A stretch of 64,000 nucleotides of DNA from contig JBAXAI010000003.1 in NCBI GenBank assembly GCA_037142615.1, positions 1 through 64,000 on the forward strand. The letters run 5' to 3'. The translations under genes were made by a program, and so were the position numbers. Shown piece by piece: positions 44,411 through 61,324 of this stretch (positions within the stretch are counted from its first letter, which is position 1; the number at the start of each line of letters is the position of its first letter). A model generated the notes under the pieces. That model was not told where the DNA came from. It saw nothing but the letters and a program-made list of their open reading frames with translations, and searched no databases. This DNA is from Spirochaetales bacterium. GTDB lineage: Bacteria; Spirochaetota; Spirochaetia; JABEVK01.

Positions 44411-44441
44411 AAAAGCCGCCCCCCAAAGGGCGGTTTTTTTT
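44411..44441. terminator. intrinsic terminator
   Basis: aaaagccgccc-cccaaa-gggcggttttttt between convergent genes. Confidence 0.8.
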
Positions 44442-44468
44442 ATGCGCCCGGGTGGAGTGCTTGCCCGG

Positions 44469-46144: not shown

Positions 46145-47109
46145 TCGACCAGACTCCGGCCGGTCAGGCGCAAAAAGACGTCCTCGAGGCTCGAACGGCG
46201 AACCAGCGACGTCAGCGGGTGCAGGCCCTTGGCGGCGATGGCTTCGAGCACCGCCTCGCCGTCACCCGAGTAGATCAAAATGCGGTCGGGGAGCACTTCC
46301 AGGCGGTCGCCGAGGCCTTCGAGCTGTTTGGCAACGTCGGCGTTCTTGTCGCTGCCGAAGCGCACCTCGACCACTTCACGGCTCGAATAGCGGGCAATCA
46401 GGTCGGCCGGGGTGCCTTCGGCCATGATTTTGCCCTTGTCCATCACAATGAGCCGGTCGCAAAGTTGTTCGGCCTCGTCCATGTAGTGGGTGGTGATCAC
46501 CAGCGTCACGCCCTCTTCTTTGAGCCGGAACAGCCTGTCCCACAAGATGTGGCGGGCCTGAGGGTCAAGGCCGGTCGTCGGCTCGTCGAGCAGCAGAATG
46601 TCGGGTTCGTTCACCAAGGCGCGGGCAATGGTAAGTCGGCGTTTCATGCCGCCCGACAGGTCATCGACCTTGGTCTTGGCCTTTTCGGTCAGTTGGGCAA
46701 ACTCGATGAGCTCGTCGGCCTTTTTTTTGAGGAACTTGTGCGGCAGGCCGAAGTAGCGACCGTAAATGATGAGGTTTTCGCGCACCTTGAGCTCGGTGTC
46801 GAGGTTGTCTTGCTGCGGCACCACGCCGAGGTGGGCGCGGATGTCGGGGCCGCGCGTGTTGGGGTCGAGCCCGAGAATCGTCAGTTCGCCCGAGGTGCGC
46901 TTGGACACGCTGGCTACCATGCGCATGGTCGTCGACTTTCCGGCGCCATTGGGCCCGAGCAACCCGAAGGCCTCGCCCTTTTTCACTTCAAAATGGATGG
47001 AATCGACGGCCTTGAAGTCGCCGTAGGTTTTGGTCAGATTGTGGGCCGAAATCATCACGTCGGCCGCCGGTTGGGGAAGTTTGTTCACCGCGACAGTCTC
47101 GGCTTGCAA
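46141..47109 (-). CDS. ABC transporter ATP-binding protein (NodI/DrrA-like); exact start uncertain
   Basis: GPNGAGKS, LSGGM, LLLDEPTTGLDP, TTHYMDEA. Confidence 0.92.
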   Translation of the reverse strand: MQAETVAVNKLPQPAADVMISAHNLTKTYGDFKAVDSIHFEVKKGEAFGLLGPNGAGKSTTMRMVASVSKRTSGELTILGLDPNTRGPDIRAHLGVVPQQDNLDTELKVRENLIIYGRYFGLPHKFLKKKADELIEFAQLTEKAKTKVDDLSGGMKRRLTIARALVNEPDILLLDEPTTGLDPQARHILWDRLFRLKEEGVTLVITTHYMDEAEQLCDRLIVMDKGKIMAEGTPADLIARYSSREVVEVRFGSDKNADVAKQLEGLGDRLEVLPDRILIYSGDGEAVLEAIAAKGLHPLTSLVRRSSLEDVFLRLTGRSLVE

Positions 47110-47155
47110 TGAAAAATTGTCAAAGGGTACCGAGGCACCGCGTGGGCGTGTCCGG

Positions 47156-47608
47156 TCACTTGGGCGGCAGTTCGACCAGTTCGGGAAAGTAGTAGTCCAG
47201 CGTGCCGTTGTCTTTGACGCGCAGTTCGGCGTAGCCCCGTTTCGACAAGTCGGTCAGCACGGTCTCGGCCTCTTCGAGCTTCAGGTCGGACTCGAGCACC
47301 ACCAGCGCGGGCGTCACGACTCCGCTTCGATTGCGGGCCACCTTCAGGACCGTCTTTTCGAGGGAGTCGCGGCGCTTGGTGTCCTTCTCGATGCGTTTTT
47401 CGAGGGCCCGGCGCTTTTCGTGGCTGCGGTCGGCAATCGCGGTGGCGCCCCGGCGCAGTCCCGTGATCACGGGGAGCACGCCAAAAACCAGGCCGAGACC
47501 CAGAGCCCAAGCGGGGTTGAGAATCTGAAAGAAGAACAGACCGTAGATTGCCGCTCCGGAGGTAAGCCCGGCGACGATGCGCTCGAGTCCTGACTTGGAT
47601 CTTGCCAT
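47156..47608 (-). CDS. membrane hypothetical protein with C-terminal winged-helix-like domain
   Basis: Two TM helices then EKTVLKVA...GVVT...EAETVLTDL...YYFPEL; start ATG 47608. Confidence 0.7.
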   Translation of the reverse strand: MARSKSGLERIVAGLTSGAAIYGLFFFQILNPAWALGLGLVFGVLPVITGLRRGATAIADRSHEKRRALEKRIEKDTKRRDSLEKTVLKVARNRSGVVTPALVVLESDLKLEEAETVLTDLSKRGYAELRVKDNGTLDYYFPELVELPPK

Positions 47609-47764
47609 GCCCCGAAAGATACCGACACAACTGCGAGTTGTAAAGCGGAGGCGAAGGGCTTTGACGACTTCGCGACCAGCGTCCCTTTCGTGTCCCCCAG
47701 TCCAGTACAAGCTAGCCGTGCCCACGAAAATGAATCATCCTGATTGAATCTGATTGGAGGGTCT

Positions 47765-47938
47765 ATGGATCAAGCCCTGGCCGCTTGGGTCGACCTCGAG
47801 GAAGAAAAAACACGACTGACGTTGGAAGCCCTCAAGGATGTTGACGAAGGAAGAGTCGTCGAGCACGCAGACGTCCTCGCCTGGGCAGAAAGCTTGGCGT
47901 CCAGCGAACCGATTCCCGTCCCCGGTACTCCCGCTTGA
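47765..47938 (+). CDS. CopG/ParD-like antitoxin, apparently lacking the N-terminal RHH domain
   Basis: QALAAWVDLEEE..RLTLEAL.DVDEGRVVEHADVLAWAESL; GGAGG RBS; overlaps the toxin gene. Confidence 0.75.
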   Translation: MDQALAAWVDLEEEKTRLTLEALKDVDEGRVVEHADVLAWAESLASSEPIPVPGTPA

Positions 47939-48210
47939 AGATCGTCTGGACCAGCAAAGCGCTTTCCGGCCTGGTCCGAGTCCACGAGTTTCTCGCGCGG
48001 GTGAATAAGCCCTCGGCGGCACGCCGGGTCTTGGCCTTTACGAAGGCCCCCGAGGTGTTGCTCTCGAACCCTCAACTAGGCGAGAGACTCGAAGAGTTTG
48101 CTCCCCGCGAAGTGCGCCGAGTTCTGGTGGTGGAATACGAACTGCGGTACGAGCTTCAGGAGACTACCATCTTCATCTCGCGGATCTGGCACACCAAAGA
48201 AAACCGCTAG
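47935..48210 (+). CDS. RelE/ParE family toxin
   Basis: KIVWTSKALSGLVRVHEFL, NPQLG, YELRYE, IWHTKENR. Confidence 0.88.
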   Translation: MKIVWTSKALSGLVRVHEFLARVNKPSAARRVLAFTKAPEVLLSNPQLGERLEEFAPREVRRVLVVEYELRYELQETTIFISRIWHTKENR

Positions 48211-48224
48211 GGTCCGCGAGAGAC

Positions 48225-48245
48225 GTCTGACCCCCGGTGGATTCA
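48225..48245. repeat. REP-like motif copy 1 (gtctgacccccggtggattca)
   Basis: Shares gtctgacccccggtg and cccccggtggattca with 50090-50120; its terminal tca is the Rpn stop codon. Confidence 0.75.
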
Positions 48246-49058
48246 GGATTTCAAAAGCGCCTCGACGGTCGCCGAAGGGAGTCCAGTCAGCGCTGCGACT
48301 TTGGCAACACTCATGCCATCTTCCAACAAGGCCGCTGCGACTTCGGCCTTTCCCTCGGCCTTTCCCTCGGCCTTTCCTTCTGCTTTTACGCTGAAGTAGT
48401 CATGCCGCTCCATTGACTCGTGTATCTCTCTGTAAACTTCAGGTTCAAACATGAGGTACGCCTCCATCCGTTGCTTCGCTGATCCGAGCAAGGCAACCAA
48501 ATCGGCCGGGCCGTTGGCTGGCCTCGTCTCGGGCTTCTCCAAGAATGTGTCCCAAATGGCCGCTTTTTTCAACAGCGTTCGGCGGCTCGGCGACCTCAGG
48601 AGTTTGGGAAGTTCCACGAAGATGAAGCCCAGATGTGCCGTATGTGGTAACCGAAAGTGGTGCAACCAAGGTCCTTTCTTTGAGATCTCATACTCGAGAA
48701 AATTGAGAGAAATGACCGGTTTCAACGTGGCGTAGTTTTCGCCTTTGGGGAGTTGGCGGGCAAAAAGGCGCGCCCAGTAGAACAAGGTCCGCTCGAAATA
48801 GGCGGGTTTGCGGGTAGTTTGCACTTCGACATTGATGATGCGGCCGTTGTCGTCTTCGGCCAACAGATCGAGAATTGCCAGCTTCTCGCCATTGTGTCCT
48901 GGAGTCAATTCTCGGGGCTGGAGCTGCAGCTTGTGGACCAGCGGCAGCCCGACGGCCTCGAAATGGGCGTTGACGAGACTTTCAAGGAGCGGTAAGCCTT
49001 CGGGCTCGCCAAAGACGTGCAAGAAAACGGAGTCGTGAGTGAGCGGGGAATAGGGCAT
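48243..49058 (-). CDS. Rpn family (PD-(D/E)XK) nuclease
   Basis: DSVFLHVFG, LDLLAED, NVEVQ, RTLFYWA, FVELPK; C-terminal (EGKA)n repeats and a GMSVAKVAALTGL HTH tail. Confidence 0.88.
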   Translation of the reverse strand: MPYSPLTHDSVFLHVFGEPEGLPLLESLVNAHFEAVGLPLVHKLQLQPRELTPGHNGEKLAILDLLAEDDNGRIINVEVQTTRKPAYFERTLFYWARLFARQLPKGENYATLKPVISLNFLEYEISKKGPWLHHFRLPHTAHLGFIFVELPKLLRSPSRRTLLKKAAIWDTFLEKPETRPANGPADLVALLGSAKQRMEAYLMFEPEVYREIHESMERHDYFSVKAEGKAEGKAEGKAEVAAALLEDGMSVAKVAALTGLPSATVEALLKS

Positions 49059-49059
49059 T

Positions 49060-49077
49060 TGGTACCTCGAGGTACCA
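49060..49077. promoter_or_regulatory. perfect 18-bp palindrome over the Rpn RBS
   Basis: tggtacctcgaggtacca, immediately upstream of the Rpn ATG. Confidence 0.55.
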
Positions 49078-49180
49078 GACAGGAAAAAGGGGCGTCTTGC
49101 TTCTACGTTGGTAACGAAATCGAAGGAATCGGGGTTTCGTTCTTGGGGACGCAGGCTGCTTTACGCGAATCTAGTTGGAG

Positions 49181-49229
49181 GCCTGGGCGACACTTCGTTT
49201 ACGCTTGGGCGACGCTTCGTTTGCGCCTG
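49181..49229. repeat. 22-bp imperfect tandem repeat x2.2
   Basis: gcctgggcgacacttcgtttac / gcttgggcgacgcttcgtttgc / gcctg. Confidence 0.8.
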
Positions 49230-49233
49230 AATT

Positions 49234-49248
49234 CCCGCGGTGGATTCA
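49234..49248. repeat. REP-like motif copy 2 (cccgcggtggattca)
   Basis: One mismatch to the copy 1/3 core; its terminal tca is the stop codon of ORF 49246-49416. Confidence 0.65.
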
Positions 49249-49416
49249 TTCCACTGGCGGTGTCAGATTACTCCGAAGCAGCTCGTTCAGTAACTGCGAG
49301 GGGTCTTTTCCGGCCTTTTGGGCTTGTTGCTGCAAGAGAGCGGCGAGATCGGCTTCGAGGAAAACAGCCAATCGGTTGTCTGAGCGAGGATAGTACCTCT
49401 TGCCAACGATGATCAT
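49246..49416 (-). CDS. orphan or truncated BrnA-like antitoxin
   Basis: GKRYYP...LAVFLEADL...LLNELLR resembles the 55711-55929 protein (GKFTVP...IPVYLDPEV...VNELLR); no cognate toxin adjacent. Confidence 0.45.
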   Translation of the reverse strand: MIIVGKRYYPRSDNRLAVFLEADLAALLQQQAQKAGKDPSQLLNELLRSNLTPPVE

Positions 49417-49508
49417 GGCAAACGGATTCTGGAAAACACCCTCGGCCTGCTGGAAGGTTACTTTGCGGAATTTGGCGGAGGTCTGTCCCCAGGTGGGAAC
49501 ATGCCCTG

Positions 49509-50027
49509 TTATTGGAGGGTCAACAACCTGTGCGACGGAAACAGCCCTTGCAGCCAGGCCGGCAGAGGAGCGAGCCAGCTTGGTGGGCCAGTCCGTCGAA
49601 GCCCGACGCCGCCCCATTTCCACTGCTCCGGGGTGGAAACCAGTTCGGCCCTGACGGGATTGTTGTCGACGTACGCGAACACACGAAGAAACTCGACAAA
49701 GTTGGGGATAATCCACGAGAAGAACCGGCCACCCCAAAAGTGCCCCCAGAGGCCGTTGGCCTTGTTATAACGGATGGCGAACGTCTGGAGAATCCATTTC
49801 ATGATATTGGCGAGAGTTGAAGCCCCTTTGGGCTGGAGGATCAGGTGAAAATGGTTGCCCATGATCACGAAGTTGTCGAGGTGGAAGTCGAACTTCTCGT
49901 GTGCCCTGGCGAGCACGTCGAGGAACATCTGTTTGACCGTGTCGTGTTCCATCAGGAGTTTTTGGTGGTTGGCCCGGGCCGTGACATGGTATTTGGCGCC
50001 GTCCTGGATGATTCGGGGTTTTCTCAT
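49509..50027 (-). mobile_element. REP-associated tyrosine transposase (RAYT / Y1 HUH TnpA)
   Basis: MRKPR, YHVTARAN, MGNHFHLIL (HUH), GHFWGGRF, YVDNNPVRAELV (catalytic Tyr), PEQWKW. Confidence 0.9.
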
Positions 50028-50089
50028 ACCTGCATGACTGCGATCGAGGCGGTTCTGCTTCTACGAATGACGAAGAAATCGGTTTTGAG

Positions 50090-50120
50090 GTCTGACCCCC
50101 GGTGCCCCCCGGTGGATTCA
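50090..50120. repeat. REP-like motif copy 3 (tandem)
   Basis: gtctgacccccggtg-ccccccggtggattca, about 60 bp upstream of the RAYT start. Confidence 0.75.
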
Positions 50121-50159
50121 CGATGGGATCACCTCTGGAGAGGTCAGTCCCTCCGAAGT

Positions 50160-50393
50160 CTACCGCGAGTGGCTGAGAATAAACTCCCGCAGCGCTGAGT
50201 TCATCAGGGTCTGGTAACCGATCTTTTCTTCACCGGCTTTTTTTCGAAAGTACAGGAGCACATCGTCGTCGAGTCGAATGGAAGTGGAGATTTTCTTCGG
50301 CTGATAGAACCGACCGCGGATTCCCTTGGAGAAGTCGTACTCGTCGGCAAGTTCAAACAAGTCCTCAGATTCTCTCATAGTGCTTTCGTTCAT
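50160..50393 (-). CDS. BrnA family antitoxin
   Basis: EYDFSKGIRGRFY, SIRLDDDVLLYF, GYQTLMNSALRE; start may be ATG 50378. Confidence 0.9.
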   Translation of the reverse strand: MNESTMRESEDLFELADEYDFSKGIRGRFYQPKKISTSIRLDDDVLLYFRKKAGEEKIGYQTLMNSALREFILSHSR

Positions 50394-50649
50394 TCTGGCT
50401 GGCCTCCCTTGCCGAAATAATCCGGATCACTTCTTGACCGTTGGAATCGAAATACAGGTTGGCGACAACGAGAAGCCGGCCGTACGGGGTTTCGCCGATG
50501 GTGATCCAGCGCTCCTCGAAATACGAAAAACGATGATCCAGAAGCGAAACGTGCAGAGGGTCGGCAAACACCAACTTGGCCTCGTCGAACGACACACCGT
50601 GCTTCGCTTGGTTTGAGGCGTCCTTCCCTGCATCCCAGTCGAACGTCAT
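50365..50649 (-). CDS. BrnT family toxin
   Basis: FDWDAGKDASNQAKHGVSFDEA, EERWITIG, IRIISAREA. Confidence 0.92.
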   Translation of the reverse strand: MTFDWDAGKDASNQAKHGVSFDEAKLVFADPLHVSLLDHRFSYFEERWITIGETPYGRLLVVANLYFDSNGQEVIRIISAREASQNERKHYERI

Positions 50650-50866: not shown

Positions 50867-52081
50867 TTACACTTTCCTAACTTTGGTAGCGTCCGGAACC
50901 AAAACGAACCGGCGCTTCCAGTGTGGCGATATTCGACTGGCCACTTCCTCGGTTCGAAACCGCCAACTCCGCGAATGGCGCAGAATACCCAAATAAGAGT
51001 TCATGCTCGCGAGGAAGGCCGCTTTCTGCTCGCGTTTGGGTGGCCTACGGGCGACAACGAGATTATGCCGGTCGATGGCCTGCCGGAAGTTGCTACGAAG
51101 CCGTCGGCTCGGGTACAGCCGGTCGGGACGCACGAAAGCCCCGAGAAACGCCACACCGACACTGGCCCGAGCCAGGCGAATCTTTCGAGGGTGCAAAGTG
51201 AGGGCGAGTCGGTCGTGAAGGAAGTTGCGGATAGCCGCAGTGGCGGTGACGAGCACCTCATGGTCGCGGTGCACCAGGAACAGGTCGTCCACGTAGCGGC
51301 CATAGCTGGCGATGCCTAGGGTGTGCTTCACGTAGTGATCCAGTCCGCTCAGGTAAAAGTTCGCCAGCACCTGCGAGGTCAGGTTGCCAATCGGCAAGCC
51401 GCAGCCCGAAGGAACTTTGAAGAGGCTCTTGTCGGCCGGAAGGTTGTCCCAGCTCGAAAGCGGGCTTTGTCGGCGGCAATCGCGGGTCGGGTCGGCCAGA
51501 ATCAGGTTTCGGAGCAACTGGAGAATCAGTTTCAAGTCGTCGCCGCGGTAAGTCCGGTTGAGGAAATCTTCCAGCAAGTTCAGCAGTTTGGTTCGCTGAA
51601 TGTTCATGAAGAACCCCTGGATGTCGAGACGTAGCACCCAGGGGTCGCAAGGTGGGTTTGACGATTCGCGGCGCAAGAAGCGCTGAAGCCGCGCTATGCC
51701 CAAGTGAGTTCCTTTGCCGACGCGGCACGAATAGCTGTCGTAAATGAACTCGCGCTCAAAAAGCGGATTGAGCCGACGGATCAGCACATGGTGCACCACG
51801 CGGTCTCGGAAGCCGGCGGCAAACACCTCGCGCTTGACGGGGGTTTCCACAATGAAAACGTTCGTGGGTGCAGGAACCCAGCTACCTGCGTTGAGCTCGG
51901 CACAAAGCTCAATCAACGAGTGTTCCAGATCGAGCTCAAAGGCGACGGCGCTGGGTTTATTGCGCTTGTGGCGACGGCACTCATGGTAGGCCTCAAAGAC
52001 TTCGGCCAACGAAAACGCAGGTGGAGAAAGAGGTTGCGGTGTGGCAGTCACACCGCAACCGGCCTGTTCAAGAGCCCGCAC
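50867..52081 (-). CDS. DGR reverse transcriptase (start GTG 52081 or GTG 52051)
   Basis: KREVFAAGFRDRVVHH, YSCRVGKGTHLG, LRLDIQGFF, GLPIGNLTSQVLANFYL, RYVDD, FLG; no maturase or endonuclease domain. Confidence 0.95.
   Translation of the reverse strand: MRALEQAGCGVTATPQPLSPPAFSLAEVFEAYHECRRHKRNKPSAVAFELDLEHSLIELCAELNAGSWVPAPTNVFIVETPVKREVFAAGFRDRVVHHVLIRRLNPLFEREFIYDSYSCRVGKGTHLGIARLQRFLRRESSNPPCDPWVLRLDIQGFFMNIQRTKLLNLLEDFLNRTYRGDDLKLILQLLRNLILADPTRDCRRQSPLSSWDNLPADKSLFKVPSGCGLPIGNLTSQVLANFYLSGLDHYVKHTLGIASYGRYVDDLFLVHRDHEVLVTATAAIRNFLHDRLALTLHPRKIRLARASVGVAFLGAFVRPDRLYPSRRLRSNFRQAIDRHNLVVARRPPKREQKAAFLASMNSYLGILRHSRSWRFRTEEVASRISPHWKRRFVLVPDATKVRKV
52032..52060. other. perfect 12-bp stem-loop just 3' of TR
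   Basis: ggttgcggtgtg-gcagt-cacaccgcaacc. Confidence 0.8.
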
Positions 52082-52183
52082 CGCCCGGACATAGTTTTTG
52101 TTGTTCTTGTTGTTGTTGTTCTGATTGCCATTGTCGAAGTTCTGTTTCCAGGCGTTGTTGTTGTTGTTCTGCGAAGAAGACCA
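52073..52183 (-). repeat. DGR template repeat (TR)
   Basis: AAC-rich; translated in the VR frame it reads WSSSQNNNNNAWKQNFDNGNQNNNNKNNKNYVRAVRA; 43 adenines. Confidence 0.97.
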
Positions 52184-52348
52184 TGAGTGCGGGAGTCAGT
52201 ATGCCCGGCAGGCGTCTGCCGTCCATGTCGTGTTCCTGCCATCACCCGTGCCACTGGGGGCACCATGGGGATCTGCTGGCAGGCCCCGCACCGCTTTTGA
52301 ACGAAGCCTGGCTCGCCCGGCAACACCGTGACACTGCCGGTTCGGGCC

Positions 52349-52690
52349 TTACCGGTGGGCATTGCGCCATCCGGTGACCTGTTTGCTGATGCCTTCCATC
52401 AACTCGGCCAGCTCGGCCTGGTTGCGGATGGGCAGCAGTTTGAGGTCGGTGCACAGACGGATTTCGAGCTTGAGGACCTCGAAGTCGTCGAGGAAGGTTT
52501 CGAGGGGCACCTCCTTGTGTTGGGTCTTGTGCGCGCGGTAAATGCTGCGCACCAGCGACAAACAATCGCGCTTCATATCTTGGCCCAGGGTGAACTTGTA
52601 CTCGCGGGCAAAGTGCTGGGTGAGCTCGAACACCCGCAGGGTGAGTTTGTACACATCTTTGAACACCGGCAAGTCGTAATAGAGCGCCAG
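52349..52690 (-). CDS. avd: Avd accessory variability determinant (four-helix bundle)
   Basis: LYYDLPVFKDVYKL, FAREYKFTLGQ, LKLEIRLC.DL, ISKQVTGW; lies between target and TR; candidate start GGAG-N6-CTG(52690). Confidence 0.88.
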   Translation of the reverse strand: MALYYDLPVFKDVYKLTLRVFELTQHFAREYKFTLGQDMKRDCLSLVRSIYRAHKTQHKEVPLETFLDDFEVLKLEIRLCTDLKLLPIRNQAELAELMEGISKQVTGWRNAHR

Positions 52691-52700
52691 AGTGAACTCC

Positions 52701-52724
52701 TGAGGGGGGCGACCACCCCCCTCA
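52701..52724. other. GC-rich hairpin downstream of VR (candidate DGR target-recognition hairpin)
   Basis: tgagggggg-cgacca-cccccctca, a perfect 9-bp stem about 30 nt after the target stop. Confidence 0.8.
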
Positions 52725-52755
52725 ACCCCCATTCCAAAAAGTCAAAGGACAAAAG

Positions 52756-55266
52756 TCAAAAAGCCCGCACCGCCCGGACACAGCTTTCGTTGCCCTCGGC
52801 GTTGACGTTCTGATAGCCAATGGCGAAGAGCTGTAGCCAGGCGTAGTAGTTGTCGCGCTGCGAAGAAGACCAGTACCACTGCTTGGCGAAGCCTCCCTGC
52901 CCGTTCTTCGCGAGCACGGTGTAGAGCAGGTTCAGCTCGTCTTTGCTGGGCAAGAACCAGTCGTTGAAGCCGCCGGTGCTCAGGTCGTAGCACAGTTGGG
53001 CGGCGTAGCTACCGCTGCCTTGGGCCGCGATAATGGCCTCGGTGTTGGCTTTGCCGCTGCCGATCTTGGTGTCGGTTTTCACGTCGATGTGGCTGCCGTT
53101 GTACCACTGGATGCCGGCGCTGGCGTCGCTGGGGGCGGCCTCGAGGTAGCGCCATCCACCCGAGTTGTTGCCCTTGTCGTAAAACACAATGCCACCAGCG
53201 GGGCCCAGGTCACCCAGCTTAATCCCGGGTTTGTCGGCCACCACGTTGGTTGTTTGCCCGGCGGCGAGCGTGGCACTGCCCTTGTAGGGGATGCCGTAGT
53301 TGTCGGTCCATCTGACCTCAAGTTTCACGCTCCCCTCGGCCAGCTTCACCGTCAGCGGCGTGCTTCCCATCACCTGCCCGTCCACGTACACCTGCGCCAC
53401 GCCGTCGCCCTTTTTGGTGTTCACGACAAGCGTTCCCACGGCCAAGATGGGCTTGGCCCACTGGCCCAGCGCAAAGTACGCGGCCCGTTTGACGGCGGTG
53501 TTTTGCACCACCACCGCGTTGCTGGTCAGGTTGCGTACCCGCACTCCGCGCACCTCGACGGCGTAGCGCTTCTGGTCGGCTTGGCGCACCAGGCCCCAGT
53601 CCACTTCGGCGGTGAGCGCGTTGGCTTTCACGGCGGCGTCGAGGGCGCGGATGGCGGTCGCGGGGTCGTTGGCCAGGCCCAGTTCGGCCACCAACGGTAC
53701 GGGCGTGAGAGGTACGGTGGCGTCGGCACTGCCCACGGTGAACGGCCAGGTTTTGGCGTTGCGGTCGTAGGTGCCCACCGTGAGCGTGGCGGCGCTGCCG
53801 GTCAGCGTCCAGGTTTTCGTCTGCAAGGTGCGCAAGGTGCTATCGAACTGCGCCCGGATGCTCGCGGTCTGCGCCACGCGCTGCGCCTCGGCGCTGGCTT
53901 TGAGCTGGCTCAGGTCGGCCTGTCGTTTGCCTTCGAGCGTGGCGCGTTCCTGATTTTGACGGGTAGCAAACTCGGCGTCGCTTTCCACGATGTCGGCCTC
54001 TTCTTTGTCGATGGCCTTGACTTGTACATCCCACGTCGCGTTGGTGCTGGCCACGCTCTTGGCCAGCGCGGCGGCGTACTGGCCGTCGACCTCCTTGAGC
54101 ACGGCGTCGAGGCGTTCCACGGTGTCGATGAGCACGTCGGGGTTGTCGCTGGCGGCGGCGGTAGCCAGCTTGTCGAGCTCGGCGCGGCGGGTGGCAGCGA
54201 GGTTTCCCAGTTCGTTCTGCTTGGCGGCGGCTTCGTTGGCCGCTGTTTGCCGTTGCAGGCTCACCTGCTGGGCCTGCGCCGCCAATTGCGCCTGACGGGA
54301 GGCCTCGGCGGCCAGGTTGTCGGCTTCGAGTCTTTTGGCCGCCTGCAGGGCCTGTTGGCGTTGCTGTTCCACCTCGAGCTTCTGTTTGGCGCTGGCGTCT
54401 TTGGTGGTGTTGATCTTGGCTTGCAGTGCCGCCACCTGGGCATCGAGCGCGGCCAGTTCGGCGGTGCTCTTGGCGCTGGCCGACTGCGCCTTGGCGGCGG
54501 CCAAAGCGGGGTCATTGAAGTAAAAGGCCTTCGAGAGCCCGTCGTCCACACGGGGTTGCTGTTTGCCGCTGGTAGCCGCTTTCACATCGGCCTTCACCTG
54601 CGTCATCACCTCGGCCACCGTTTTGCCCGGCGCGGCGAGGTTTTTGAGCACCGCAGCCGTGAACACGCCGTTGCGGCCCGCACCGTCTTGCGCCACGTCG
54701 CCGGGCTGCGTGGCGTAGGCAATCAGCGTTTCGACGTCGCGCGGGGCGGCGATCGCGGCGAGGCCCCGGGTGCCCGACCGGCTGGAACCTGGGAACGGGT
54801 TGTCACGGCAGGCGTCAAGGAAGATGAGCGCCGTGGCCACCCCTGCGTCTTTGATGCGACCCAACACGTCGGCCAATGGCACGCCCCGGCTCTTGGCCTT
54901 GGCGAGGCTGGTGATATCTTCTTTGACTGGAATCAGATAGTTCTCGCCATCGGCTTGCACACCGTGGCCTGCGTAGTAGAACAAAGCGGTGTCTTTGCCC
55001 TTGAGGGCCTTCTGAAAGTCGGCCAAGGCCGCGTCCATGCCTGCGTAGTCGGCGTCGGTGCGCAACAACACGTCGAAGCCTTGCTCGCGGAGCGCGGCCG
55101 CGATGTCGGTGGCGTCGTTCACAGGGTTGGTGAGCGCGTTGCTGGCGTAGGCGCTGTTGCCAATCACCAAGGCAGCGCGGGTGTTTTGAGCGGCCACAGG
55201 AACGGCCACCACGGCGAAGATCAGGGCGAGCGCAAACAACGCAATCGGGCGGCTGAGAGTGTTCAT
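52756..55266 (-). CDS. DGR target: exported caspase-family (peptidase C14) protein with coiled coil, PEGA and C-terminal DUF1566/CLec-like variable domain
   Basis: Signal peptide; ALVIGNSAY, YYAGHG, FLDACRDNPF and GRNGVFT (caspase); VYVDGQVMGSTP (PEGA); GPAGGIVFYDKG...WRYLEAAP, DWFLPSKDEL, YWSSS...VRAVRAF. Confidence 0.92.
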   Translation of the reverse strand: MNTLSRPIALFALALIFAVVAVPVAAQNTRAALVIGNSAYASNALTNPVNDATDIAAALREQGFDVLLRTDADYAGMDAALADFQKALKGKDTALFYYAGHGVQADGENYLIPVKEDITSLAKAKSRGVPLADVLGRIKDAGVATALIFLDACRDNPFPGSSRSGTRGLAAIAAPRDVETLIAYATQPGDVAQDGAGRNGVFTAAVLKNLAAPGKTVAEVMTQVKADVKAATSGKQQPRVDDGLSKAFYFNDPALAAAKAQSASAKSTAELAALDAQVAALQAKINTTKDASAKQKLEVEQQRQQALQAAKRLEADNLAAEASRQAQLAAQAQQVSLQRQTAANEAAAKQNELGNLAATRRAELDKLATAAASDNPDVLIDTVERLDAVLKEVDGQYAAALAKSVASTNATWDVQVKAIDKEEADIVESDAEFATRQNQERATLEGKRQADLSQLKASAEAQRVAQTASIRAQFDSTLRTLQTKTWTLTGSAATLTVGTYDRNAKTWPFTVGSADATVPLTPVPLVAELGLANDPATAIRALDAAVKANALTAEVDWGLVRQADQKRYAVEVRGVRVRNLTSNAVVVQNTAVKRAAYFALGQWAKPILAVGTLVVNTKKGDGVAQVYVDGQVMGSTPLTVKLAEGSVKLEVRWTDNYGIPYKGSATLAAGQTTNVVADKPGIKLGDLGPAGGIVFYDKGNNSGGWRYLEAAPSDASAGIQWYNGSHIDVKTDTKIGSGKANTEAIIAAQGSGSYAAQLCYDLSTGGFNDWFLPSKDELNLLYTVLAKNGQGGFAKQWYWSSSQRDNYYAWLQLFAIGYQNVNAEGNESCVRAVRAF
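52762..52872 (-). repeat. DGR variable repeat (VR)
   Basis: Encodes WSSSQRDNYYAWLQLFAIGYQNVNAEGNESCVRAVRA; 89/111 identical to TR. Confidence 0.97.
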
Positions 55267-55272
55267 GCACAA

Positions 55273-55301
55273 AACCTAGGCGATGGAGCGCTCTGCGTCA
55301 A
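55273..55301 (-). promoter_or_regulatory. leaderless sigma70 promoter of the DGR target
   Basis: TTGACG-N17-TAGGTT-N6-ATG(55266). Confidence 0.6.
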
Positions 55302-55411
55302 CGGGCCATTGCAAATGGAGGCGTTGCTTCGCACACCAACACTTCGAAGATTTGTTCCGAAACACACAAGCAAAACGGACGAAGTCCCCGTTACCACCAT
55401 GGGAGGGCAGC

Positions 55412-55714
55412 GTGGCGCTGGACTTCGACTGGGACATAGACAAAGACCTGGCAAATCGGAAGAAGCACGGTCTAGCCTTCGCCGAAGCGGCAGAAGTGTT
55501 TTCGGACGTTGATTTGATGACAAAATTTGACTGGGATCATTCCGATGGGGAAGAACGTTTCATCTCGCTTGGTCAATTGCCAAGTGGAATCACGCTCGTT
55601 GTCTGCCACACGATTCGCAACCGCGCTGGGGTCGAGGTGACCAGAATCATCAGTGCGCGAAAGGCTGACAAGGGTGAGCAAGCAGCTTACTATGAAGGGA
55701 AGGACGCCGAATGA
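55412..55714 (+). CDS. BrnT family toxin
   Basis: FDWDIDKDLANRKKHGLAFAEA, HSDGEERFISLG, RIISARKA; GGAGG-N5-GTG. Confidence 0.9.
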   Translation: MALDFDWDIDKDLANRKKHGLAFAEAAEVFSDVDLMTKFDWDHSDGEERFISLGQLPSGITLVVCHTIRNRAGVEVTRIISARKADKGEQAAYYEGKDAE

Positions 55715-55929
55715 GAGAACACTATGACTTTCGAGGTGCAGAGCGTGGCAAGTTCACAGTGCCCCGCGACCAACTCAGGATTCCCGTGTATCTTGACCCC
55801 GAAGTTAGCCAAGGTCTGAGGGAGTTGCTCCCTACGTTCGAAATGGGACTGGAAGAAACCGTGAACGAACTCCTGCGTCGAGAGCTTGAGAGCCTGCGCC
55901 AGAAAACCCCCAAGTCGACTGGTACCTGA
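55711..55929 (+). CDS. BrnA-like antitoxin
   Basis: MREHYDFRGAERGKF...IPVYLD...VNELLR; ATGA overlap with the toxin. Confidence 0.82.
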   Translation: MREHYDFRGAERGKFTVPRDQLRIPVYLDPEVSQGLRELLPTFEMGLEETVNELLRRELESLRQKTPKSTGT

Positions 55930-56009
55930 CCGCGCCCAAGCTGTTGAACTTGGGCCAATCCCGCAAGCAAAACCTCGTCAACCTCCGTTAGCTCAGGTAC
56001 AATGGAGGC

Positions 56010-56615
56010 ATGAGGAACATGGGAATCCCCGTACGAAAGTTTGACCAGCACTACACCTACCGCGACTACCGCCAATGGACCGGCGAGCGATGGGAACTCA
56101 TCCACGGCGTGGCCTACAACATGAGCCCGGCACCAAGGATTCCGCATCAAGGGGTGTCGGGCGAGATCTTTGGGCAGCTGCGGGATTTTCTCAAAGGGCA
56201 ACACTGCACGCCTTTCCACGCGTCCGTCGATGTGTTTTTCCCTCCGCTGCGCGAAATGGAGGAGGACGACGTGGACACCGTGGTGCAACCCGACGTCCTG
56301 GTGGTCTGCGACAAAACCAAGATCCGCAACAACGGCATTTGGGGTGCGCCGGACCTCGTGGTCGAGATTCTGAGCAAGTCGACCAGCCGCAAAGACCAGC
56401 ACGAAAAGTTCGACCTGTACGAGCGCGGTGGCGTGCGCGAGTACTGGATCGTCGACCCGAACGGCCAGTGGATCCAGCAGTACGTCCGCGAGGGGAACGG
56501 CAAGTTCGGTGTCGAGGTGACCTTCGAAAAGACCGGTCGCGTGGCCAGCGCCGTACTACCCGGCTTCGAACTAGACGTCGACGAAGTCTTCGCCGCGGGG
56601 CAACTTCCCGCATGA
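56010..56615 (+). CDS. Uma2 family endonuclease
   Basis: RWELIHG, MSPAP..HQ, VVQPDV, GAPDLVVEILS, GVREYWIVDP. Confidence 0.92.
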   Translation: MRNMGIPVRKFDQHYTYRDYRQWTGERWELIHGVAYNMSPAPRIPHQGVSGEIFGQLRDFLKGQHCTPFHASVDVFFPPLREMEEDDVDTVVQPDVLVVCDKTKIRNNGIWGAPDLVVEILSKSTSRKDQHEKFDLYERGGVREYWIVDPNGQWIQQYVREGNGKFGVEVTFEKTGRVASAVLPGFELDVDEVFAAGQLPA

Positions 56616-56620
56616 GCGGC

Positions 56621-56674
56621 CCGGCCACGCGCCTGCGGCGCTTAGGCCCGGGCACGCGCCTTCGGCGCTTAGCC
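56621..56674. repeat. 27-bp tandem repeat x2, each copy with a gcgcc-NNN-ggcgc hairpin
   Basis: ccggccacgcgcctgcggcgcttaggc / ccgggcacgcgccttcggcgcttagcc (24/27 identical). Confidence 0.8.
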
Positions 56675-56850
56675 CCACACTTTCCGGGCAAGCCCGAAAA
56701 GTGTCCCCACGCGTAAGGTGCCTGGAGGGCGAGGCGCTCGCCAGAGGCGAACGTCCGGTTCCTGGGGGACGCCGCCCTGCGGCTTACCCCAGAACGGAAC
56801 CCCGGAAGGGACCGGCCCCGGCGACGTCGGCCTGCGGCCGCCTTACGCCC

Positions 56851-56879
56851 ACAGGTCTCGGCCGCTGGCCGAGACCTGT
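56851..56879. repeat. perfect 13-bp REP-like palindrome
   Basis: acaggtctcggcc-gct-ggccgagacctgt. Confidence 0.8.
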
Positions 56880-56899
56880 CATATGCCAACAATGCGGCC

Positions 56900-57036
56900 C
56901 GGCGACAACAGGAACGCGGGTCTGGCCTTGGGGTGGCAGGTAGACCGGCTGCGCTGAGCATTCTCTTCGCATGCTCAGCGCGGTCGGACTACCTGACAGG
57001 ACCCCTGACCCCGATGATGCGTTCCTGGTGTCGCCG
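56900..57036 (+). other. 137-nt long hairpin with central bubble (candidate ncRNA or REPIN/MITE)
   Basis: Outer stem cggcgacaacaggaacgc/gcgttcctggtgtcgccg; inner stem tggcaggtagaccggctgcgctgagcat/atgctcagcgcggtcggactacctgaca. Confidence 0.55.
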
Positions 57037-57045
57037 CGACCAACC

Positions 57046-57074
57046 TTGACCGGGGACACGCCCTTCGGTACAAT
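57046..57074 (+). promoter_or_regulatory. sigma70-type promoter
   Basis: TTGACC-N17-TACAAT. Confidence 0.7.
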
Positions 57075-57099
57075 GGGCTTCCGCATCCAAGGAGTCGCC

Positions 57100-57264
57100 A
57101 TGTCGAAAGCCCACCGGGGAAAACCCCTTCGTGAAACCCCCAACAGCAGCCGGGGTACTTGCCCCAGTTGCAGCCGCACCGCCATCAAGGTCGTGTACGA
57201 GCTTGAAGTCGCAGGTGCCAAGACCAAGGTCTGCAAGCAGTGCAAGGCCAAGGCGAAGGCCTAA
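57100..57264 (+). CDS. small basic zinc-ribbon protein (54 aa)
   Basis: AAGGAG RBS; MSKAHRGK...RGTCPSC...KVCKQC with two CxxC pairs. Confidence 0.75.
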   Translation: MSKAHRGKPLRETPNSSRGTCPSCSRTAIKVVYELEVAGAKTKVCKQCKAKAKA

Positions 57265-58178
57265 ACCCAGCGCATCGTCTCGTCCGCGAGCTGTCCCGGA
57301 TCCTTCTGGGCAAGGACGAGCTTCTGCGGCGCGTGGCCCTGGCCGTTTTGGTCGGCGGCCATGTGCTCATCGAGGACGTTCCCGGGGTGGGCAAAACCAC
57401 ACTGGCGAAAGGCCTCGCTGCGGTGTTGGGCGCCAAGTTCCGCCGCATTCAATTTACCCCCGACCTGCTTCCGTACGACATCACGGGGTTTGATGTGTTC
57501 CACCCCGAAACCCGGCAGTTTGAGTTCCACCCAGGGCCGATCTTCGCGCAGGTGGTGCTGGCCGACGAAATCAACCGCGCCACGCCCAAGGTTCAGGCGG
57601 CCCTGCTCGAGGTGATGGAAGAACACCAGGTGACCAGCGGTTCGGTGACCCGGCCGATGGAACCGTTCTTTTTGGTGCTGGCCACGCAGAACCCGTTTGG
57701 CACCGAGGGCACCTACCCTCTGCCGTCGGCCCAGCTCGACCGCTTCTTTTTGCGCCTGTCGGTGGGCTACCCCGATTCGGCGTCCGAACGGGCGGTGTGG
57801 TTGCAAGACCCGGGCCACCACCTTTCGACGCTGGTTCAACCGTCGGTCAGTGTGGACGAATTGCTGGAACTGCGGCAGGGCTTGGATACGGTGCACGTGT
57901 CTGAAAAACTGCTGAACCTGATCGAAGCGGTGATTGGCCGGACCCGCAACCATCCGTCGGTGCTGCTGGGCCTGAGCCCCCGCGCCGGTGTGCACCTGGT
58001 GAAGGCCGTGCGCGCCTGGGCCTGGCTAGCGGGACGCGACTTTGCCACCGCGCGCGATGTCGCCGAGATCGCCGTAGACGTGCTGGCGCATCGGTTGCAG
58101 CTTCGCGACTTGGGCCTGAGCGCTCAAGCCGTGCTGCAAACCGTGCTCGACGAGGAGTTGGCACGCCATGAAGCGTGA
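57240..58178 (+). CDS. MoxR family AAA+ ATPase (start uncertain)
   Basis: EDVPGVGKTT, RIQFTPDLLPYDITG, LADEINRATPKVQAALLE, ATQNP, AQLDRF. Confidence 0.92.
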   Translation: MQGQGEGLNPAHRLVRELSRILLGKDELLRRVALAVLVGGHVLIEDVPGVGKTTLAKGLAAVLGAKFRRIQFTPDLLPYDITGFDVFHPETRQFEFHPGPIFAQVVLADEINRATPKVQAALLEVMEEHQVTSGSVTRPMEPFFLVLATQNPFGTEGTYPLPSAQLDRFFLRLSVGYPDSASERAVWLQDPGHHLSTLVQPSVSVDELLELRQGLDTVHVSEKLLNLIEAVIGRTRNHPSVLLGLSPRAGVHLVKAVRAWAWLAGRDFATARDVAEIAVDVLAHRLQLRDLGLSAQAVLQTVLDEELARHEA

Positions 58179-59252
58179 TCCGGGGGCCAAGCGGTTCCCG
58201 CTGACCCTCACCGGCGCCGGTTTTTTTTTGCCTCGTCGGTCCTGCTGACCGTCGGCTTTGTCCACGGGGAGCTCGCCACCCTGCTGTGGGGCGCGTTGTT
58301 CGCCTTTCTGGTCGTTTACACCGCCAGTGTTTCGCTGCTGCTCCGTCTCCGCGTTCCTGATTTGGTGGTCGAACAGGTGTTGCCGGCCGCCCATTCGGGT
58401 GAACCGACGAGACTTTCGTGGCGCTCGGGCTTGCCGGTGACGCCGCCTTTGTTCGTTTGGTCGGTGAGCGTGGTGGCCCGCCATGGGGCGCACCGCAAGG
58501 CCGTCGGCCGGTTTGACCTGGCTGCGGGGGCCTGCTCGTGGGAACTTTTGCGGGGGACCTACCAGACGACGGCCCGCCTGGAACTTCGCGACCTGTGGGG
58601 GCTGACCCTCTGGCGTCCCCGCGCCCGCTTCGACCTGACGATCAAGGTGCTCCCCGCGAAGTTTGCGTCGGCGGTGCCCCTGCCGACCGCGCGTCCCACC
58701 GACCTGACCGGTCCGCGCCAAGCGGTGCGCCGCTCGGGTGAGGCCTTCGACGTGCGGCCGTATCAGCCGGGTGACGACTTGCGCCGCCTTCACTGGCCCT
58801 TGTGGGCGCACTCGGGGCAAACGTGGCTGCGAATCCCCGACCTGACTCCACCCCCGACAGGCCTGAGCGTGTGGCTGGTCGATCTCAGCGTCCCGGCTTC
58901 GACACCGGATCCCGAGGCGGTGCTCGACCTTCGGGCTGGGAGCCTGGCGTTCTGGCTTCAGCCTGGCGAGGCGTGGACTCTGCAAGTGCCAGCGCTGGGC
59001 TTGGCTTGCAGCAATCCCGGCGAGTTGGGCAACTTCCTGGCGGCGCTGACGCCGAGTCAGGACGCACCTGACCCGGGCGAGCGCTGGCTTGGGAGCCTGC
59101 CGCCGGAAGTGCTTGTGGTGACAGGAGAGGGCAGTCCGGGTCTAGAAGCGTTGCGGAGGCTGCTCGAGCCCCGCACGCGGGTTCGGCCGGTGCTGGTTCC
59201 CCTGCCTTCGCCGATCGTGCTGGCCCGGCCTCGCTGGTGGGAGCGCCGATGA
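58168..59252 (+). CDS. DUF58 protein interrupted by a frameshift in a T9 tract (58221-58229)
   Basis: GAGGAG RBS with ATG 58168 reads to a stop at 58246; one extra T joins it to the frame carrying DLWGL and RPYQPGDDLRRLHW. Confidence 0.8.
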
Positions 59253-61324
59253 CAACCCTTCTGCGTCTGGCTTCGCTGGGCTTTCTGGCGTGGAACTACG
59301 GCCTCTACTTTCCCGGGTTGGTCAATCCGGTAGCCCTGGTCGCGATCGCCGCAGCGGCGCTGGCGGGGGGCCTTTTTACGTCGCGGACCCGAGCGTGGGT
59401 GGCGGCGTTGGCGTCCGTTGCCGTGTGGCTGGGGCTCCGCTTGCTCTTGGTCGGTGTGCCGCAAGCGCTTTCGTCGTTTTCGGCAACGCCCTTGCCTTGG
59501 GATACTTGGCCCCTGGCGGCCGACCGCCATCTCGTGTTCGCCTTGCCGGTGGTGGCGCTGGGTTGGTTTGAGGGCTGGTGGTTCCGACCCGGCCGCTCCT
59601 CGCCGGCCAGGGAACGGTTGGTTCACGCCCTCGTGCTGGTGGCGTTGTTCTGGGCCCAGGGGCCTTTCCACCTCACGCTGTACTCGTCACCGTTCCTGTT
59701 CGGGCTGGTCCTTTTGCCGTATTTGGCCGTCGAGGCCTACTTGCTGATTCCTGAAGCCAGGCTCGTGGCTCGGCGAACCTTGGCCTCGGTCGCGGGCGTG
59801 CTGCTGCTCGTGCTGGCCGTCGTCGCGGTGCTGTGGAGCCTGTTCGGCAAGTACGAGGAGCTCTCGACAGCGTCGGGAGGGGGCCTGATGAAGCCCGACC
59901 TGTTCCAGTTTGACTTTTCACCGTTGATACGGCTCGAAACGCAGATCTCGCTGAGCGACCACTTGGTGCTACTTTACCGCGAACCCGGGCCAGGCACCAA
60001 GCGGTATTTGCGCCGTTTCGTCTTGTCGGGCTACGACCCGGCCAAGGGGTTCTTTGTCGACCCACCGGCCGGGGGTGGCGAAACCGCGCTTCCTCCTGTG
60101 GGGCACAAAGCTCTCACTTTCCCGAACAATGAAAGCTTGCCGGGGCGACAACTCGTTACGCAGGAATACTTTCTGGTGAACCTGGACCCTGCGTCGCTGC
60201 TTGCGCTCAACGCGCCGGTGCGGTTGCAACCGTACGCCCGCTGGAACAAGTCGTCGTTCGTGAATGCCTACAAGGTCGAGTCTCGCGTGGCTGGCGACCT
60301 GTACTGGGAACTCGGCGACGAACCCGGCGACGGCTTGAACGACGCCGAGAGGCAGCACGACTTGCGCTGGGGCGACGATGCCGAACTCCGGGAGCTGGCC
60401 CTCAGCATTACCGCCCACGCCGAAACGCCCTACGAAAAAGCGCTGGCGGTGCAGAACTACCTCAAGGACAATTTCCTGTATTCGCTCAAGCCAGGCGAGC
60501 CGGGACCCGAGGGGGCGCTGAAGCACTTCTTGTTCCAGTCGAAGAAGGGCTATTGCTCCTACTTTGCGTTTTCGATGGCGCTGCTCTTGCGAAGCGTGGG
60601 GGTCCCGGCCCGGGTGAGCGTTGGGTTTTTGACCAATCCCGACGAAAAAGTGCTCGACTTTTACCCTGTGAGGGCCTTCCAGGCTCACGCCTGGGTCGAG
60701 GTACCGTTTGGCACCTACGGCTGGGTCGACTTTGACCCCACCAGCGAAAACTTAGCGCCGGGGGAAGGACTGACCTCGCCCAAGGGGATGGATCCCGACG
60801 AAATGACCCGCATGATCGCCGAGATTCTCAAGGCCCAGCCGGTGCCGCTCACGGAAACTCCTTCGGAAGCGGTTTCGGCCCAACCCGAGTGGAGCGTGGG
60901 GGCGGCAATGGATTGGGGGCGTCGTTTTGGAGGCCTGCTGCTGTTGACGCTCCTGCTGCTGGCTCAGGAGTTCTACCGGCAGCGCTTCCGCGCCAAGGCT
61001 TGGTTCGCGCCACCCCGGCAAAAAGCCGAACTCGCGTGGCGCCACCTGCGCTGGAAGGCCCTGCAGGTCGGGTTGGGCCCACAGGCCGCCGAGACCCCAG
61101 GCCAGTGGGCCGACCGTGTCGACTTGGCTCAGGGTTGGGTGCAAGGGCTCGAACGCGCACGCTACTCTGCCGAGTTTTCACCAGCCGAGGCGAAACTCGC
61201 TTGGTCGGAGCTTCCGGCGATCACGAGGGAGTTGGCCCTCCGCGGAAGGAATCTTCGTTGGGGCCGCGCGCGGTTGGTCGCGATGGTCGTGTTCCCGTGG
61301 TGGCCGCATCGGAGGCCACGTTGA
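59249..61324 (+). CDS. membrane transglutaminase-like domain protein
   Basis: Multi-TM N-terminus; GYCSYFA, GVPARV, HAWVEV and DFDPT (Cys-His-Asp triad). Confidence 0.9.
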   Translation: MTTLLRLASLGFLAWNYGLYFPGLVNPVALVAIAAAALAGGLFTSRTRAWVAALASVAVWLGLRLLLVGVPQALSSFSATPLPWDTWPLAADRHLVFALPVVALGWFEGWWFRPGRSSPARERLVHALVLVALFWAQGPFHLTLYSSPFLFGLVLLPYLAVEAYLLIPEARLVARRTLASVAGVLLLVLAVVAVLWSLFGKYEELSTASGGGLMKPDLFQFDFSPLIRLETQISLSDHLVLLYREPGPGTKRYLRRFVLSGYDPAKGFFVDPPAGGGETALPPVGHKALTFPNNESLPGRQLVTQEYFLVNLDPASLLALNAPVRLQPYARWNKSSFVNAYKVESRVAGDLYWELGDEPGDGLNDAERQHDLRWGDDAELRELALSITAHAETPYEKALAVQNYLKDNFLYSLKPGEPGPEGALKHFLFQSKKGYCSYFAFSMALLLRSVGVPARVSVGFLTNPDEKVLDFYPVRAFQAHAWVEVPFGTYGWVDFDPTSENLAPGEGLTSPKGMDPDEMTRMIAEILKAQPVPLTETPSEAVSAQPEWSVGAAMDWGRRFGGLLLLTLLLLAQEFYRQRFRAKAWFAPPRQKAELAWRHLRWKALQVGLGPQAAETPGQWADRVDLAQGWVQGLERARYSAEFSPAEAKLAWSELPAITRELALRGRNLRWGRARLVAMVVFPWWPHRRPR

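Follow-up and report, generated by a model that had tools for sequence, protein, structure and literature searches.

A 64,000-nucleotide stretch of DNA from an uncultured freshwater spirochaete (Spirochaetales bacterium, GenBank assembly GCA_037142615.1, contig JBAXAI010000003.1, positions 1 to 64,000 of the forward strand), referred to here as the window, carries a diversity-generating retroelement (DGR) that we judge, with a probability of about 0.9, to be complete, chromosomal and recently active. DGRs are well-known targeted hypermutation cassettes, and the family has been catalogued in thousands of genomes. The parts of this one all lie on the minus strand in the classical order: a target gene that ends in the variable region (VR), the accessory gene avd, the template repeat (TR) and the gene for the reverse transcriptase (RT). 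The target encodes a protein with a caspase domain near its N-terminus and a DUF1566/Lcl_C domain with a C-type lectin fold at its C-terminus (Table 1).

The repeat pair and its cassette

The TR and VR were the sole direct-repeat family reported (114 nt, 80% identity, spacing 689, ungapped). Alignment on the minus strand gave 23 mismatches, of which 22 (10 A>G, 7 A>T and 5 A>C) fall on TR adenines. The remaining mismatch, a C>T at + coordinate 52072, belongs to the final 3 nt, at the onset of divergence between TR and VR, and is outside the 111-bp core (TR 52073-52183 against VR 52762-52872). Within the core, 22 of the 43 TR adenines are substituted and none of the 68 other positions is changed; over the full 114-nt repeat the latter count is 1/71, the boundary C>T. 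The probability that all 22 mismatches would fall by chance on 43 adenines among 111 positions is 1.1e-11 (hypergeometric). The TR adenines are placed at codon positions 1 or 2 in 41 of 43 cases, and the mismatches follow suit, with 12 at position 1, 10 at position 2 and none at position 3. The resulting translations differ in 16 codons. In theory, the TR could specify 4^43 = 7.7e25 DNA variants, or 2.3e24 stop-free protein variants involving 26 variable codons.

The RT translation carries GLPIGNLTSQ and YVDD, which correspond to the [I/L]GxxxSQ and YxDD motifs of the DGR clade. When all PDB sequences were searched, the best match was the RT of the Bordetella phage DGR (8ub7_A, E 1.1e-28), followed by a group II intron maturase (E 2e-08). 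The start of the RT was set at GTG 52051 because residue 28 of the query aligns with residue 18 of 8ub7_A. Among phage proteins, 101 records match the RT and 47 of these cover at least 80% of it; in the 12 phage matches listed, identity is 34-41% across 88-97% of the RT, and the Bacteroides uniformis phages among them have reportedly been published as DGR carriers. The avd gene sits between the target and the TR, which begins 165 nt past it.

The preliminary description of this locus, made from the sequence letters, had given an ungapped 111-bp alignment with 22 mismatches, all at A (22 of 43). The repeat search and alignment reproduced this exactly. The 16 changed codons and the TR and VR peptide strings that it listed agree with the translations, its estimate of about 8e25 variants with the computed value, and its placement of avd and of the DGR-type RT motifs with the annotated genes. 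Its assignment of the order and mutation signature to the Bordetella phage type stood as well, every named component having passed an independent test. It had overlooked that the target is a caspase-like, probably exported protein and that the genome contains two further DGRs with a different architecture. It had also proposed a search for remote VRs, and none was found for this TR: a scan of the whole 4.27-Mb genome that ignored adenine positions recovered only the TR itself and the adjacent VR. The next-best site had 25 of 71 non-A mismatches, and BLAST gave nothing better.

The same parts, order, adenine-specific substitution and GC-rich shared 3' end characterize the DGR of Bordetella phage BPP-1 (mtd-avd-TR-brt). 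That DGR also has a hairpin downstream of its VR, for which the 10-bp stem downstream of the window VR is a candidate counterpart. It differs in being phage-borne, in diversifying a tail-fibre protein and in using a different lectin subtype; the window DGR is chromosomal. By analogy with BPP-1, the avd-TR-RT region would be transcribed, and a complex of RT and Avd would reverse-transcribe the TR RNA while misincorporating opposite adenines. The mutagenized cDNA would then replace the VR and leave the TR unaltered. Homing would be guided by the shared G+C-rich 3' end together with the differing sequence just after it, and T-rich repeats and a GC hairpin downstream of the VR would probably also direct it. 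At the DUF1566/Lcl_C lectin-fold tip, 26 codons could in this way take up to about 2e24 forms. In BPP-1 a spacer of roughly 140 nt separates the TR from brt. The window RT starts about 19 nt after the TR, and any spacer-like RNA structure would therefore overlap the RT gene.

Variable-region alleles in near-identical strains

Three relatives in a protein collection fall within the 90% cluster of the window target. P0123 is one residue off the window protein and its VR is identical. P0001 differs from the window at 14 of 798 backbone positions (0 in residues 1-604, 14 in residues 605-777) and at 21 of 38 VR residues, every one of which corresponds to a TR codon that contains adenine. P0150, a 132-aa fragment from the shorter proteins, has 4 differences in 88 backbone residues and 18 in the 38 of the VR. 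Three VR alleles (that of the window, P0123 and locus L124; that of P0001; and that of P0150) are carried by backbones that are 96-100% identical, a backbone divergence of 2-5% against 47-55% in the VR. We therefore conclude that the element has been active in nature. Since the backbones differ by only 1.8% (14/798) and 4.5% (4/88), the VR switches are recent on that scale. The preliminary description had suggested recent activity, and the three alleles strengthen that suggestion. In both the P0001 and P0150 alleles, 37 of 38 codons are derivable from the window TR by A-to-N changes alone; the 38th is the boundary codon past the GC block common to TR and VR, a codon that is also changed in the VR of the window. 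Ungapped backbone counts for more distant homologues were discarded because of indels.

Contigs from sequencing runs were also compared with the window. Those of run X1, possibly the sample from which the window itself came, cross the VR with 0 differences. Two contigs of run X3 span the TR and match it with 0 differences; this is the only other sample in which TR invariance was observed, the P0001 and P0150 alleles having been compared as protein records. The contigs of X2, X3 and X5 leave the VR core uncovered (they end at 52780, 52734 and 52469 and restart at 52858, 52839 and 52858, respectively) and were not counted as evidence. One X2 contig (depth 4.6, side 30) links 52784 to 52858 and omits 73 nt, which may, weakly, indicate a divergent VR.

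Two further features of these runs are recorded here. A 273-nt contig of X1 matches TR 52075-52183 with only 4 differences, but its upstream flank is another one; the contig may represent a VR with hardly any mutation, or else a TR from some related organism in that sample. An X2 contig has dense substitutions of a non-adenine type at 52888-53313, and non-VR differences between the near-identical strains cluster in the last quarter of the gene (52888-53460, residues 605-777). Recombination or selection on the lectin/PEGA part is a possible cause of the cluster in residues 605-777.

The target protein and its possible role

From N- to C-terminus, the target comprises a signal-peptide-like segment, the caspase domain, a helical stalk, a beta domain, a PEGA domain and the DUF1566/Lcl_C tip with the VR. 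The 836-aa form is the version in the protein collection, and an AlphaFold model of the full protein has a mean pLDDT of 85.1. The caspase dyad is found in the motifs YYAGHG (His) and FLDACRDNPF (Cys); in an alignment of 32 family members, all 32 have both residues (H101 and C153 in the 836-aa form). Comparison with the MALT1 paracaspase gave about 1e-7 by phmmer and, with the full model, E 4e-14 by Foldseek. By domain score, fold and His/Cys dyad, the protein belongs to the caspase family. The helical region matches no Pfam family and the beta-rich region (486-600) was assigned to no known family. Modelled alone, the lectin-fold domain has a pLDDT of 97.8. Its best Foldseek match is the C-terminal domain of Legionella Lcl (8q4e_A, E 2.4e-07), followed by a Bacteroides fimbrial protein (4eps, 3.5e-04) and then by weak C-type lectin-like matches. 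The N-terminus is modelled with low confidence (pLDDT <50 at residues 1-5 and 9-27). The 8 homologues inspected at sequence level have a similar hydrophobic N-terminus, as do most of the genome's 18 caspase paralogues.

Table 1. Features of the DGR, its target and its surroundings. Positions are those of the window; residues are those of the target.
Feature	Position	Strand	Evidence or remark
ParE	47935-48210		Pfam scan of flanks
PD-(D/E)XK transposase-like gene (PDDEXK_2)	48243-49058		Pfam scan of flanks
IS200-like Y1 gene	49509-50027		Pfam scan of flanks
BrnT/BrnA	50160-50649	minus	Downstream of RT
RT	50867-52051	minus	394 aa from GTG 52051; Pfam RVT_1 2.3e-16
12-bp stem-loop, then U-rich tract	52032-52060	minus	Terminator-like scan; RNA fold z = -3.39
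TR	52070-52183	minus	Non-coding; repeat search and alignment
avd	52349-52732	minus	127 aa; Pfam bAvd 2.6e-17, 63.7 bits (cut-off 40)
Perfect 10-bp G+C-rich stem, 4-nt loop	52701-52724	minus	DNA folds
T-rich tandem units, 7-8 nt (GACTTTT; TTTAACTA in relatives)	52737-52761	minus	TRF period 7, 3.6 copies
Target gene	52756-55266	minus	836 aa from ATG 55266; frame open from TTG 55272 too (838 aa)
VR	52759-52872	minus	Last 38 codons of target gene
DUF1566/Lcl_C C-type-lectin-fold domain, last 156 residues	52759-53226	minus	Pfam Lcl_C 716-836, 2.8e-09
G+C-rich VR end, 17 nt, GTCCGGGCGGTGCGGGC	52763-52779	minus	Identical in TR; boundary resembling IMH/IMH* (initiation of mutagenic homing)
Beta-rich region, then PEGA	53242-53811	minus	Model strands 486-600; Pfam PEGA 613-677, 2.7e-05
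Helical region, four helices, ~residues 253-483 (~230 residues)	53818-54510	minus	DSSP on AlphaFold model
Caspase (Peptidase_C14) domain, residues 32-251	54520-55179	minus	Pfam 4.6e-37, 128.4 bits (cut-off 21.4)
Signal-peptide-like N-terminus, residues 1-27	55186-55266	minus	Arg, 18-residue hydrophobic stretch, VAA/Q; read from sequence
Second BrnT and small partner gene	55283-55929	plus	Divergent from target
Uma2	56010-56615		Pfam scan of flanks

We give even odds to the view that the target is an extracytoplasmic protease, or a protease-linked receptor, whose ligand specificity is continually altered by the DGR. A more specific version, in which the DGR re-aims the hypermutable head of a secreted or periplasmic caspase-like protease (or coupled receptor) at changing external proteins or glycans, is doubtful. 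If it were true, the targets of the re-aimed protease could be phage, competitors or prey polymers, the system would stand apart from the cytoplasmic sensor-plus-suicide-effector systems known to date, and the 18 non-diversified, putatively exported caspase paralogues would be a fixed repertoire beside the window target. A DGR-linked member also offers a handle for finding the ligands of the caspase-lectin architecture, and at this locus public data alone suffice to show VR switching between strains, which makes it a clean example from nature.

Several points weigh against the reading of an active DGR with an exported, ligand-binding protease as its target. The start of the RT is uncertain; its frame is also open from GTG 52081, inside the TR. 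The only NCBIfam match of Avd, DivGenRetAVD (4.5e-14, 52.6 bits), is under its cut-off of 80, and Avd has no match among PDB sequences at E up to 1. Codon reachability discriminates poorly because NNC codons reach 15 residues, and P0002, a 69%-identical homologue, passes at 37/38 as well. The window allele recurs in P0123 and in L124 (identical to the window over 2650/2650 nt), records that are perhaps not independent; the VR is therefore not changing in every sample. The samples were compared at the level of assembled Logan contigs, and no polymorphism within a population was seen in them; the RNA runs X12, X17 and X18 hold only 8-12% of the sequence words. Five homologues, 49-64% identical, have 1.3 kb or more of sequence downstream; neither avd nor RT is intact in any of them, and DGR linkage is therefore no rule of the family. 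As for the protein, export is probable as judged from the N-terminal sequence, protease activity of the caspase-like domain, with its intact His/Cys dyad, is putative, and so is ligand binding by the VR-bearing lectin-fold head. The unchanged allele, the bare homologues and the contig and RNA data would also suit a frozen relic, that is, a VR diversified in the past, a cassette now inactive and strain alleles that are old. At the metagenome locus L128, a caspase-DUF1566 homologue with 49% identity has behind it (4847-4936) a 30-aa avd remnant (80% identical) and no RT; the locus has the look of a DGR that has decayed and left its VR frozen, and the remnant hints at repeated loss of DGRs in other lineages. 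In the window, however, all parts are intact, the RT frame being open with its YVDD and avd full length. The 111-nt core has no non-A change, and strains with different VRs are only 1.8% and 4.5% apart in backbone protein. We consider a relic quite improbable.

DGR-diversified lectin sensors joined or linked to caspase or trypsin-like effectors are described (PMC7159879, PMC8195603, PMC10907252, PMC7517822). A CHAT/TIR target is known from Thiohalocapsa (PMC10907252), and the pairing of lectin sensors with protease effectors has been treated as a form of conflict system (PMC7159879, PMC8195603, PMC12642450). The target could accordingly be imagined as a cytoplasmic anti-phage system in which a lectin sensor and a caspase effector kill the cell upon phage detection. 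It does give a weak match to the NCBIfam family 'caspase, EACC1-associated type' (caspase_w_EACC1; 57.9 bits, far under the cut-off of 140), and a MoxR ATPase gene lies 2 kb away. That gene, however, heads a separate MoxR-DUF58-transglutaminase-TPR row on the opposite strand. A Pfam scan of 19 flanking open reading frames (ORFs; 35224-50649 and 55283-63649) gave no NTPase, adaptor (EAD/Trypco), EACC1, TIR or vWA-lectin gene, and the variable domain is DUF1566 rather than the FGE type described for those systems. The signal-peptide-like start of the target and most paralogues also argues against a cytoplasmic site. Judged by the 19 flanking ORFs and the target, the locus does not match the DGR-linked cytoplasmic conflict systems (VMAP/MoxR ternary, STAND-NTPase-lectin, EACC1-caspase), and we think a role of this kind unlikely. 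Still less credible is a prophage or mobile element that uses the DGR for itself and not for the cell, to switch the tropism of a receptor-binding protein. The 101 phage matches of the RT would be in keeping with it, as would the match of the DUF1566 tip to PHROG 4245 (1.3e-33, residues 661-838) and the transposase-like genes nearby (48243-49058, 49509-50027). The G+C content of avd-TR-RT and the toxin-antitoxin genes (0.54-0.60) is lower than that of the genes beyond (0.61-0.70), which is a mild sign that the accessory cassette came by transfer, but the target body (0.63-0.67) shares the composition of its surroundings and the genome has 18 caspase-domain genes besides the target. The preliminary description had seen no prophage context, and this was borne out: the 19 flanking ORFs contain no capsid, tail, terminase, integrase or lysis genes by Pfam, nine ORFs compared with PHROGs (8 flanking and the target) gave no structural, packaging or lysis matches, and there is no tRNA within 38 kb.

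Known systems, relatives and surroundings

A close counterpart of the window DGR is that of Legionella pneumophila, whose target LdtA is placed by Wu et al. 2018 (PMC5758913) in category 'd' / CLec2 with a DUF1566 domain and the classical architecture; the window element fits this category. Both are chromosomal rather than phage-borne, share the order target-avd-TR-RT, place the VR at the C-terminus of a DUF1566-type lectin-fold domain and have an exported target, predicted from sequence in the window. The repertoire quoted for Legionella, 10^26 DNA variants (PMC5758913), is of the same order. LdtA is described as a lipoprotein without a protease domain, whereas the window head sits on a caspase, a helical stalk and PEGA; the words 'caspase' and 'peptidase' are absent from the main text of that paper. 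The caspase has its counterpart elsewhere, in cyanobacteria, where variable proteins of DGRs can begin with an orthocaspase domain (Vallota-Eastman et al. 2020, PMC7517822). These proteins likewise join an N-terminal caspase-family domain to a C-terminal DGR-diversified lectin fold, and in both cases caspase domains are common among non-diversified paralogues (18 here). They come from a different phylum and are discussed as regulatory or cell-death components (PMC7517822); the window protein is distinguished by its signal-peptide-like N-terminus, 230-residue helical stalk and PEGA, and 'DUF1566' is absent from the main text of that paper. In the same phylum as the window, the TvpA DGR of Treponema denticola belongs to the HRDC-containing architecture C of Wu et al. 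2018. The window DGR differs from it in having Avd instead of HRDC and a DUF1566 instead of an FGE-sulfatase variable domain. Metacaspase-FGE-sulfatase fusions were noted in 2012, as were possible signal peptides (PMC3501461). We found no published description of a caspase-DUF1566 DGR target in the literature as available, where the main text of Roux 2021 (PMC8144416) has 0 occurrences of 'caspase', 'peptidase' or 'DUF1566'; the supplements of Wu 2018, Roux 2021 and Carrasco-Villanueva 2024 (PMC11661182) may list some. The mechanism, gene order and DUF1566 variable domain are already catalogued, and the target protein alone is somewhat unusual.

The closest relatives of the RT were found in 13 of 401 sampled genomes of the phylum, the window genome included. 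Five other spirochaete DGRs have RTs 45-50% and Avd proteins 65-71% identical to those of the window; their genes come in the same order, and VR and TR are 692-760 nt apart, against 689 nt in the window. The targets of these RT relatives are short DUF1566 proteins (213-354 residues) or, in one case, an FN3/DUF1566 protein of 1135 residues that carries two VRs. The caspase domain is absent from the targets of the nearest spirochaete RT relatives examined, and we therefore regard the pairing of this cassette with a caspase as specific to the present lineage. The target itself has a wider family. A metagenome protein search gave 1302 matches at E up to 1e-5; among 120 listed homologues, counted by hand, 46 combine Peptidase_C14 with Lcl_C and 16 combine Peptidase_C14 with FGE-sulfatase, under source names such as 'caspase family protein' from Spirochaetes, Rectinemataceae and others. 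As predicted from domain matches, the caspase and Lcl_C architecture is common in freshwater spirochaete metagenomes. A scan of metagenome contigs for the family yielded 7 loci. A scan of genome contigs with the family alignment was rejected: the two caspase motifs dominated it, and the matches were caspase proteins at large from many phyla (best 32% identity over residues 4-520). Loci L015-L043, which are paralogues and same-genus homologues, have no avd, RT or TR/VR pair within 1.5 kb on each side.

The five other spirochaete loci and the window formed a set of six for comparison of candidate cis elements. Past the shared G+C-rich 17-mer the two copies diverge (VR TTTTTGAC, TR TCTTGAAC), which resembles the expected IMH/IMH* arrangement, and the GC block is kept in 6/6 loci, at the VR end and at the TR end. 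Three to four T-rich units lie directly 3' of the VR, where they overlap the stop codon, and none follows the TR; a T-rich triple repeat is found in 6/6 loci. The GC hairpin is ~40 nt downstream of the VR, within the first avd codons, and a comparable stem (8-12 bp, 3-4-nt loop) follows the VR in 5/6 loci, L151 having only a 6-bp stem. The stem after the TR begins 10 nt past it and overlaps the likely RT start. Strong stems occur at this place in 5/6 loci, with z between -2.5 and -6.3 (-0.97 in L147), but their sequences are not conserved from locus to locus. The GC block, T-rich repeat, GC hairpin and post-TR stem have the appearance of elements conserved in this DGR clade for recognition or RNA structure, and may act in homing, priming, termination or as an avd promoter. 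The T-rich triple repeat and the sequence-variable post-TR stem may be recognition elements of the clade that have so far gone undescribed. In an X2 contig, 26 nt at 52689-52716, the GC hairpin included, are swapped for 84 other letters, indicating a strain variant without the hairpin or with an altered one.

The 19 caspase-domain genes of the genome are the target and 18 paralogues, most with a hydrophobic N-terminus. Judged by these signal-like N-termini, they amount to a large expansion of putatively exported caspase homologues in one 4.3-Mb genome. The C-terminal ends of the paralogues vary between DUF1566, FGE-like and helical/transmembrane-like (examples are C20:59253-61721, C2:114031-115815, and genes on C57, C5 and C27, the last with four copies). 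One paralogue (C2, 594 aa) also ends in DUF1566. The genome has two further DGRs, on contigs C55 (L152:3397-8005) and C67 (L153:354-4044), with the Treponema type of layout: an FGE-sulfatase target, an HRDC accessory gene, an RT and a TR. Their mismatches are adenine-specific in 19 of 21 and 13 of 15 cases, respectively. The C55 TR has two probable remote VRs, C5:81942-82080 (-) and C59:10003-10141 (+), with 3/102 and 6/102 non-A mismatches and 15 and 16 A substitutions. Each lies C-terminally in a large open frame of FN3-repeat / FGE type, and the frame on C5 lies directly downstream of a caspase paralogue. With three DGRs of two architectures, the genome is suited to the study of cross-talk and specificity between DGRs.

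Rpn-like PD-(D/E)XK transposase and Uma2 endonuclease families flank both the window DGR (48243-49058, 56010-56615) and the C55 DGR (C55:333-1112, C55:8884-9507). Either the two DGRs occupy islands of a similar kind or the genome just has many members of both families. Closer in, two BrnT genes (7e-25, 2e-21) bracket the window DGR, each with a small downstream partner and oriented away from the target start. The two BrnT proteins look diverged by eye, and a 17-nt inverted repeat (94%) joins 50617-50633 and 55692-55708.

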